From assembly GCF_041886205.1 (NCBI RefSeq), contig NZ_CP169029.1: 64,000 nucleotides of DNA; one strand, given 5' to 3'. Positions 50,569-50,900 of this stretch are shown one piece after another. The notes beneath the pieces are model-generated. The model worked only from the letters and a program-made list of their open reading frames with translations, did no database searches and had not been told where the DNA came from. Position 1 is the stretch's first letter. Each line of letters begins with the position of its first letter. The position numbers and the translations under genes are program-made. Source of the DNA: Escherichia coli. Lineage in GTDB: Bacteria > Pseudomonadota > Gammaproteobacteria > Enterobacterales > Enterobacteriaceae.

Positions 50569-50900
50569 ATATGCCTAAACACAAAAAATTGTAAAAATAA
50601 AATCCACTATCGGATATTCATATATTCTAAAAAAATATATATCGGTATAAATTATAAACAAATCGATGGCTTTTAATCACCTATGTTCCTCTCAGTCACA
50701 TGAATAAACCACCAAATATAGCGCTTCCCTATAATTTCCAATGTTTTATTCATTAAACAATTAATTCATGTAATCAATTAATTACTTTTACATTTAATAA
50801 AATTAATAATATTTTTAAGAAAAACTAAAAACATTCGACAATTAAATAAGATATTCTTGCACCGATATACCTTTTTTCTTTTCTGTTAAAGGACTCAGTT

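Follow-up and report, generated by a model that had tools for sequence, protein, structure and literature searches.

The A/T-rich gltA-ybgD spacer as a probable H-NS-silenced regulatory region of the ybgDQPO fimbrial operon in Escherichia coli

Gene organisation and base composition of the ybgDQPO locus

The DNA analysed here, referred to throughout as the window, is a stretch of 64,000 nucleotides (64 kb) from Escherichia coli. Its plus strand carries, in order, gltA, a non-coding spacer, ybgD, ybgQ, ybgP, ybgO and abrB; the next gene, nei, is on the opposite strand, as are sdhCDAB and sucA upstream of gltA. The gltA-ybgDQPO-abrB segment occupied the same chromosomal position as in K-12, with the operon between gltA and abrB. 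The locus is that of an E. coli strain other than K-12, because the nearest complete genome was that of the pig strain LHM10-1, which differed from it by 27 mismatches over 14.6 kb. The citrate synthase gene gltA (49226 bp–50509 bp), assigned from its open reading frame and the RefSeq annotation of LHM10-1, was in the same orientation as ybgD, and its product was 100% identical in all haplotypes compared.

Four intact genes on the plus strand make up the operon. ybgD (50901 bp–51467 bp) encodes a fimbrial major subunit of 188 amino acids (Pfam Fimbrial, E-value 3.5e-30), ybgQ (51518 bp–53977 bp) an outer-membrane usher of 819 amino acids (Pfam PapC_N, Usher and PapC_C, and the LHM10-1 annotation), ybgP (53992 bp–54723 bp) a periplasmic chaperone of 243 amino acids (Pfam PapD_N and PapD_C) and ybgO (54720 bp–55781 bp) a two-domain tip adhesin of 353 amino acids, the last identified from a PDB-chain match and a weak Pfam match. 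Residues 24–222 of YbgO matched the solved PDB chains 9rx0_A and 9rww_A ("Fimbrial protein") with an E-value of ~1e-131, and residues 218–353 gave a sub-threshold Pfam Fimbrial match (23.2 bits, cut-off 25.6 bits) corresponding to a C-terminal pilin domain. These matches fit a two-domain tip adhesin with a separately crystallised receptor-binding domain. More distant matches of the N-terminal domain were to PDB entries 9rwu and 9rwe, and a literature search found no publication describing 9rx0_A or 9rww_A.

As in Ybg-type chaperone-usher systems, a subunit, an usher and a PapD-like chaperone were encoded in one intact operon together with a two-domain tip adhesin. The initial annotation had described the operon as intact (subunit, usher, chaperone and adhesin), and this was borne out: none of the four genes contained internal stops, the lengths of their products (188/819/243/353 amino acids) were close to those in K-12 (188/818/242/353 amino acids) and the expected Pfam domains were present. 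Frameshifts or premature stops in ybgQ or ybgP had been named as evidence that would count against silencing; neither gene contained any. A GC-rich hairpin (GGCGGCG/CGCCGCC, plus strand, 51478 bp–51495 bp; RNA fold −14.3 kcal/mol, z −3.3) was located in the gap between ybgD and ybgQ, directly 3′ of the ybgD stop codon. In the haplotypes of E. coli, in E. whittamii and in Escherichia sp. E1V33, the stem was invariant and the loop variable; the hairpin probably acts within the operon as an attenuator or mRNA stabiliser, setting the ratio of subunit to usher.

Immediately upstream of ybgD, the 331 bp between 50570 bp and 50900 bp (134 A, 118 T, 54 C and 25 G) had a G+C content of 23.9%, compared to 50.5% for the whole window. 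The 331 bp frame with the lowest GC content in the 64 kb (50560 bp–50890 bp, 22.7%) overlapped this stretch, as did every one of the 30 frames, out of 63,670, that were lower in GC than it. At 50792 bp–50818 bp it also contained a 27 bp run of A and T only, the longest in the window, and CAATTAATT was found twice (50754 bp–50766 bp and 50771 bp–50783 bp). Two sub-blocks of 50 bp within 50660 bp–50759 bp had a GC content of 30–36%, and the block at 50760 bp–50809 bp had 10%. The region therefore has the several hundred bp and the A+T content far above the genome mean by which H-NS-silenced regions are recognised. It had been annotated initially as ~330 bp of almost pure A/T with long TTAATTAAT-like runs; the runs are real and the extreme A/T-richness was confirmed, but "almost pure" was an overstatement, as G and C make up a quarter of the bases. 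The other stretches of lowest GC in the window (17416 bp–17746 bp, 19515 bp–19845 bp and 30969 bp–31299 bp) were non-coding gaps or gene ends within an island between cydA and mngB (17300 bp–33100 bp) that is not found in K-12. According to the LHM10-1 annotation, this island encodes methylaspartate mutase (glmS/glmL/E subunit), methylaspartate ammonia-lyase, an AtuA-family protein, a DUF4387 protein, a dicarboxylate symporter, a class I fumarase, cobO, a LysR regulator and RtcB.

Anatomy of the spacer and candidate promoters

The full spacer between gltA and ybgD extends from 50510 bp to 50900 bp (391 bp, 25.6% GC), its 3′ limit abutting the ybgD ATG at 50901 bp. A terminator scan of the plus strand identified an intrinsic terminator of gltA at 50536 bp–50568 bp, with a 12 bp stem, a 4-nucleotide loop and a T-run, for which an RNA fold of −19.9 kcal/mol (z −4.8) was calculated. 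In the haplotypes assigned below to clade 3 (L006, L008 and L009), the stem (50536 bp–50563 bp) has CCCGCT/AGCGGG in place of CCCGCC/GGCGGG, a compensatory change that keeps the hairpin. The terminator is followed by an A-rich core-genome segment (50564 bp–50606 bp) that was near-identical in K-12. By alignment, the opening ~97 bp of the spacer consist of the gltA terminator and core-genome DNA and lie outside the fimbrial cassette.

Beyond this point the spacer could be divided into a distal and a proximal part. The distal part of the ybg cassette (50607 bp–50737 bp) was A/T-rich and hypervariable, with a mean column identity to the window of 0.60–0.65 across haplotypes. The proximal part contained a conserved A/T-rich core (50744 bp–50836 bp, plus strand), identified from the alignment, which at 10–18% GC was the most A/T-rich portion of the spacer. 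Conservation of three blocks within the core (50757 bp–50769 bp, 50791 bp–50802 bp and 50808 bp–50834 bp) persisted when other Escherichia were added to the three E. coli clades. Downstream of the core, the ribosome-binding site AAGGA (50889 bp–50893 bp) and the ybgD start codon could be read directly from the plus strand (50889 bp–50903 bp); AAGGA was invariant in all nine of the aligned sequences and the bases flanking it were nearly so.

A consensus scan of the spacer returned three promoter-like sites, compared to 3.5 expected in composition-matched shuffles, and because of this the placement of a promoter rests on conservation rather than on an excess of sites. One site, TAAACA-N16-TAAAAT (50576 bp–50603 bp, plus strand, 9 of 12 consensus matches), lies in the core-genome part, and a transcript starting from it would have a 5′ UTR of ~290 nucleotides. 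The best promoter of K-12 ybgD for RpoD given by Shimada et al., TAAACA-16-TAAAAT (PMC3946193), consists of the same hexamers. In clade-3 haplotypes the −10 hexamer of this site is replaced by TTAAAC and is thereby destroyed. A second site, TTTACA-N17-TATTTT (50787 bp–50815 bp, plus strand), was found inside the conserved core; in every haplotype of E. coli, and in E. whittamii as well, its −10 hexamer was recognisable as TATTTT, TATTGT or TATTAT. Located by consensus and conservation together, this sigma-70 site is the best candidate for the ybgD promoter. We infer that it would be used rather than the upstream site, because the −10 hexamer of the latter was lost in clade 3 and the site is in DNA near-unchanged relative to K-12.

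Alignments also revealed a small conserved block, GATATTCTTGC (50846 bp–50862 bp, plus strand), downstream of the candidate promoter and ahead of the ribosome-binding site, which could be an alternative −10 hexamer or an operator. A single match to the IHF consensus was found at 50772 bp and was absent from the K-12 alignment as a conserved site, and CRP-like sites in the spacer were limited to one half-site. An Rfam scan of 50300 bp–51600 bp in E-value mode returned no matches, and therefore no known sRNA or leader. Open reading frames of at least 20 amino acids in the spacer were rejected as genes, their translations being of low complexity and A/T-derived, with none credible.

Spacer haplotypes and losses of the operon

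Identity between the window and K-12 fell abruptly at 50606/50607 bp, from 98–100% to 62–76%, and the part of the A/T-rich stretch that belongs to the variable ybg cassette was confined to the 294 bp between 50607 bp and 50900 bp. A search with these 294 bp alone gave a match in 3,011 of 5,426 complete E. coli genomes. Identity to the window spacer was at least 99% in nine of the 5,426, was 90–95% in 1,482 (the JS316 type, which is the clade of the window) and was 60–80% in ~1,500, a band made up of the K-12 type together with another clade, the third. The common JS316-type spacer, 93% identical to that of the window, was found in STEC strains too. Alignment of the spacers resolved three deep haplotype clades that were 60–76% identical to one another, with GC contents of 25.6–25.9% (window clade), 29.0% (K-12) and 31.4–31.6% (clade 3). 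A DNA-pattern scan of species-representative genomes located the ybg locus beside gltA in E. whittamii and in Escherichia sp. E1V33, where the spacers had 29–32% GC; BLAST of the E1V33 spacer against that of the window detected no similarity. The A/T-richness of the spacer was thus held at 24–32% GC, including in other Escherichia species, while its sequence turned over.

The divergence from K-12 extended into the operon. Differences from K-12 were far greater in ybgP and in the mature part of ybgD than in ybgQ, ybgO or the flanking genes gltA and abrB, with protein identities of 79.9% for YbgD and 87.3% for YbgP, whereas the region encoding the YbgD signal peptide shared ~96% nucleotide identity. 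A high variant density in ybgP has also been reported from a genome-wide association study of STEC (PMC12547504). In strain 08-00022 a spacer of clade 3 precedes a gene for a YbgD that is 97.9% identical to that of the window, and the spacer haplotype and the ybgD allele assort independently, as a mosaic. It is conceivable, though we would hold this only tentatively, that 50607 bp–50900 bp is a separately exchangeable regulatory module, with three haplotypes recombining independently of the antigenic allele of ybgD beneath a shared H-NS "lid". Were this so, the conditions under which the same Ybg fimbriae are expressed would differ between E. coli lineages, with a possible contribution from the cluster of motifs in ybgQ that is described below.

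Some E. coli genomes carry the cassette and in others it has been deleted or replaced, which associates the spacer with variable or horizontally acquired genes. In the B2 strain ATCC 25922 (L003, 7206 bp–7240 bp) a deletion joins ~50640 bp to 55389 bp of the window and leaves a remnant of ybgO; BLAST placed the endpoint of this deletion at 50606 bp only because the haplotypes diverge, the real junction being at ~50640 bp. Strain PEC240 (L010, 3100 bp–3870 bp) has an IS1 at ~50706 bp and a deletion that extends to 55570 bp. These are independent losses of the operon, both with endpoints inside the A/T-rich spacer. In some E. coli strains a TRAP-transporter island follows gltA in place of the ybg cassette, and strains TW11681 and FDAARGOS_1077 carry usher pseudogenes. 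Sequences with the order gltA-ybgD-ybgQ and 80–89% identity to the window were also found in a 309 bp Alkalicoccobacillus contig (L013) and in a 3.2 kb contig of a Collinsella MAG (L015); their occurrence in unrelated Gram-positive genomes is most likely due to contamination or mis-binning.

Probable repression by H-NS and comparison with known systems

The orthologous spacer of K-12 has been characterised in several published studies. As the ybgD/gltA region (751980, 413 bp) it is one of the 78 "promoter islands" of Panyukov and Ozoline 2013 (PMC3661553); it was bound by H-NS in all of the ChIP-chip data sets compared (Table 1 of that study), it overlaps a GIST genomic island and its associated genes were called foreign by two methods. 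Genomic SELEX by Shimada et al. placed a binding site for the RpoD holoenzyme and a site for H-NS in it (PMC3946193). When wild type and Δhns strains were compared by RNA-seq by Forrest et al. (PMC8894471, Supplementary Data 2), the log2 fold changes were 3.31 for ybgD (P 1.3e-19, logCPM 3.4), 1.30 for ybgQ (P 4e-5) and 2.08 for gltA, with gltA ~100-fold more abundant than ybgD. Positive values were read as higher expression in Δhns because the known targets hdeAB, bglG, proVWX, yadK and leuO are positive in the same table; on this reading ybgD would be raised ~10-fold and ybgQ ~2.5-fold. In addition, ybgD was reported to be induced by overexpression of BolA (PMC4337573), and the ybg genes to be more highly expressed in HUS-associated than in non-HUS STEC (PMC6033998). 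Wurpel et al. described Ybg as core-associated but not intact in many strains and cited repression of cryptic chaperone-usher fimbriae by H-NS (PMC3559732). The initial annotation had called the spacer an H-NS-silenced cryptic fimbrial promoter and had suggested H-NS ChIP at the K-12 locus and expression of the operon in an hns mutant as checks. Both are available in the K-12 literature, and together with the SELEX data they support the proposal by way of an allele that is 62–76% identical to that of the window from 50607 bp onwards.

The spacer is in our judgement likely to be the regulatory region of ybgDQPO, A/T-rich and silenced by H-NS, with the terminator of gltA at its front. The first ~60 bases of the spacer would end gltA transcription and the remaining ~330 A/T-rich bases would serve as the regulatory region of the operon. 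RNA polymerase carrying sigma-70 may bind there, TTTACA-N17-TATTTT being the best candidate site, and the low G+C content would make the same DNA a preferred substrate for H-NS. Judging from its composition and its orthology with K-12, the allele in the window is expected to be bound as well. H-NS would coat the spacer, probably extending to ybgD and to the A/T-rich beginning of ybgQ, and the coat would block productive initiation, such that the operon would be almost silent under laboratory conditions. Higashi et al. 2016 found that regulatory spacers bound by H-NS diverge faster than unbound ones (PMC4720273), and the divergence of the window spacer matches this pattern.

The same composition might have arisen by passive drift under A/T-biased mutation, in the poorly constrained spacer of a variable, decaying cassette that had been acquired once, with the binding of H-NS a consequence that has no selected role. 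The distal half of the spacer, only 60–65% conserved, is in keeping with this, as are the many lineages in which the operon is deleted or broken (the B2 deletion, the IS1-associated deletion and the usher pseudogenes) and the report by Wurpel et al. that many strains lack an intact locus (PMC3559732). The proximal core and the ribosome-binding site have persisted, however, across three clades and across species, the four genes are intact in the window, as they are in the other full-length alleles that were compared, and GC is held at 25–32% across Escherichia species while the sequence changes. The strong response of ybgD to deletion of hns in K-12, its reported induction by BolA (PMC4337573) and its reported higher expression in HUS-associated STEC (PMC6033998) also count against this reading. 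Passive drift is therefore an unlikely explanation.

A still less probable alternative is that ybgDQPO has no meaningful promoter of its own and is expressed by read-through from gltA, the spacer being a terminator followed by a long leader. The two genes are co-oriented and only 391 bp apart, and in Δhns both were up, with gltA the far more abundant. As gltA was also up and was ~100-fold more abundant, read-through of the terminator could add to the signal of ybgD in that data set. Against a purely read-through origin, the terminator is strong (12 bp stem, −19.9 kcal/mol, T-run), ybgD rose more than gltA in Δhns (log2 3.3 vs 2.1), RNA polymerase holoenzyme binds the K-12 spacer in vitro and a promoter-like site is present in the conserved core. 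A phase-variation switch is hardly credible, even though many fimbrial operons are phase-variable and several imperfect inverted repeats occur in the spacer: a fimS-type invertible element was ruled out because these repeats, besides being short and imperfect, are of a kind usual in A/T-rich DNA, with no clean pair bracketing the promoter and no recombinase gene adjoining the operon, and a pap-type Dam/Lrp methylation switch because the spacer has no GATC, the nearest being at 50401 bp and 50980 bp, and no papI/papB-like regulator gene adjoins the operon.

Silencing of the spacer by H-NS, the reading that we prefer, was also considered with respect to nucleation motifs and DNA curvature. The high-affinity H-NS motif TCGATAAATT, reportedly described by Lang et al. 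2007, had one match only in the spacer, with two mismatches. Helical phasing of AA/TT with a periodicity of 10–11 bp was not significant in the spacer (P 0.33) and no phased A-tracts were detected there. Neither a motif of this kind nor phased A-tract curvature therefore marks the region; both are common in H-NS-silenced regions but are not obligatory. Three matches to TCGATAAATT were found instead near the start of ybgQ, where the DNA is A/T-rich (51532 bp–51798 bp, local GC 35–39%), at 51532 bp on the minus strand and at 51612 bp and 51789 bp on the plus strand, the last of which was the sole perfect match in the 64 kb. All three sites of this TCGATAAAT(T/A/C) cluster were conserved in four E. 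coli haplotypes, the clustering itself having a P of ~0.02 relative to random positions, and two of the three decayed in other Escherichia species. The cluster could be a downstream nucleation site for H-NS; it is a weak lead only, because those two sites are not kept in other Escherichia species.

At bgl and proU, silencing by H-NS operates through upstream and downstream sites. By analogy, ybg has an A/T-rich upstream region and a second A/T-rich patch with nucleation-type motifs ~0.6–0.9 kb downstream, inside the operon, which may resemble that arrangement. The motif cluster of ybg differs in that it is part of a coding sequence and has not been retained outside E. coli, and bridging between two sites is hypothetical.

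A closer likeness is to the cryptic K-12 operons yad, yeh, yfc, yra, sfm and ycb, for which the work of Korea et al. 2010, in the form in which it is cited in PMC3559732, gives an A/T-rich spacer before a chaperone-usher operon, poor expression in the laboratory and derepression in the absence of H-NS, as for ybg. The yadN, yehD, yfcV, yraH and sfmA spacers are found in the same promoter-island table as that of ybgD (PMC3661553), and the Δhns list that includes ybgD (PMC8894471) also has genes of yad, yeh, yfc and sfm. In contrast to ybg, which is absent or broken in many lineages, yfc was the sole cluster intact in all of the genomes examined by Wurpel et al. (PMC3559732).

The nearest system is the K-12 ybgD/gltA island itself (751980_413). 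The two spacers are orthologous, with the same genes in the same orientation and lengths of 389 bp (K-12) and 391 bp (window); both are A/T-rich and abut a variable fimbrial cassette, and they share the core, the ribosome-binding site and the first 97 bp. The window allele differs in belonging to another deep haplotype, 62–76% identical from 50607 bp on, in its GC content (25.6% vs 29.0% in K-12) and in its longest A/T run (27 bp vs 12 bp), and the measurements of H-NS binding refer to the K-12 allele only. Coordinates of ChIP peaks and promoters from K-12 are consequently not transferable base-for-base to other strains. The feature as such is already known, its K-12 counterpart being a catalogued H-NS-bound promoter island and ybgD a documented H-NS-repressed gene. 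What is added here is the mosaic structure of the spacer, with one part core DNA and the other cassette DNA, the three deep haplotypes, the composition kept without the sequence and the shuffling of spacers relative to the ybgD allele. This swapping of haplotypes is mildly interesting and fits published ideas, and it makes the ybg locus a convenient natural test of how regulatory DNA covered by H-NS diversifies, the idea put forward by Higashi et al. 2016.
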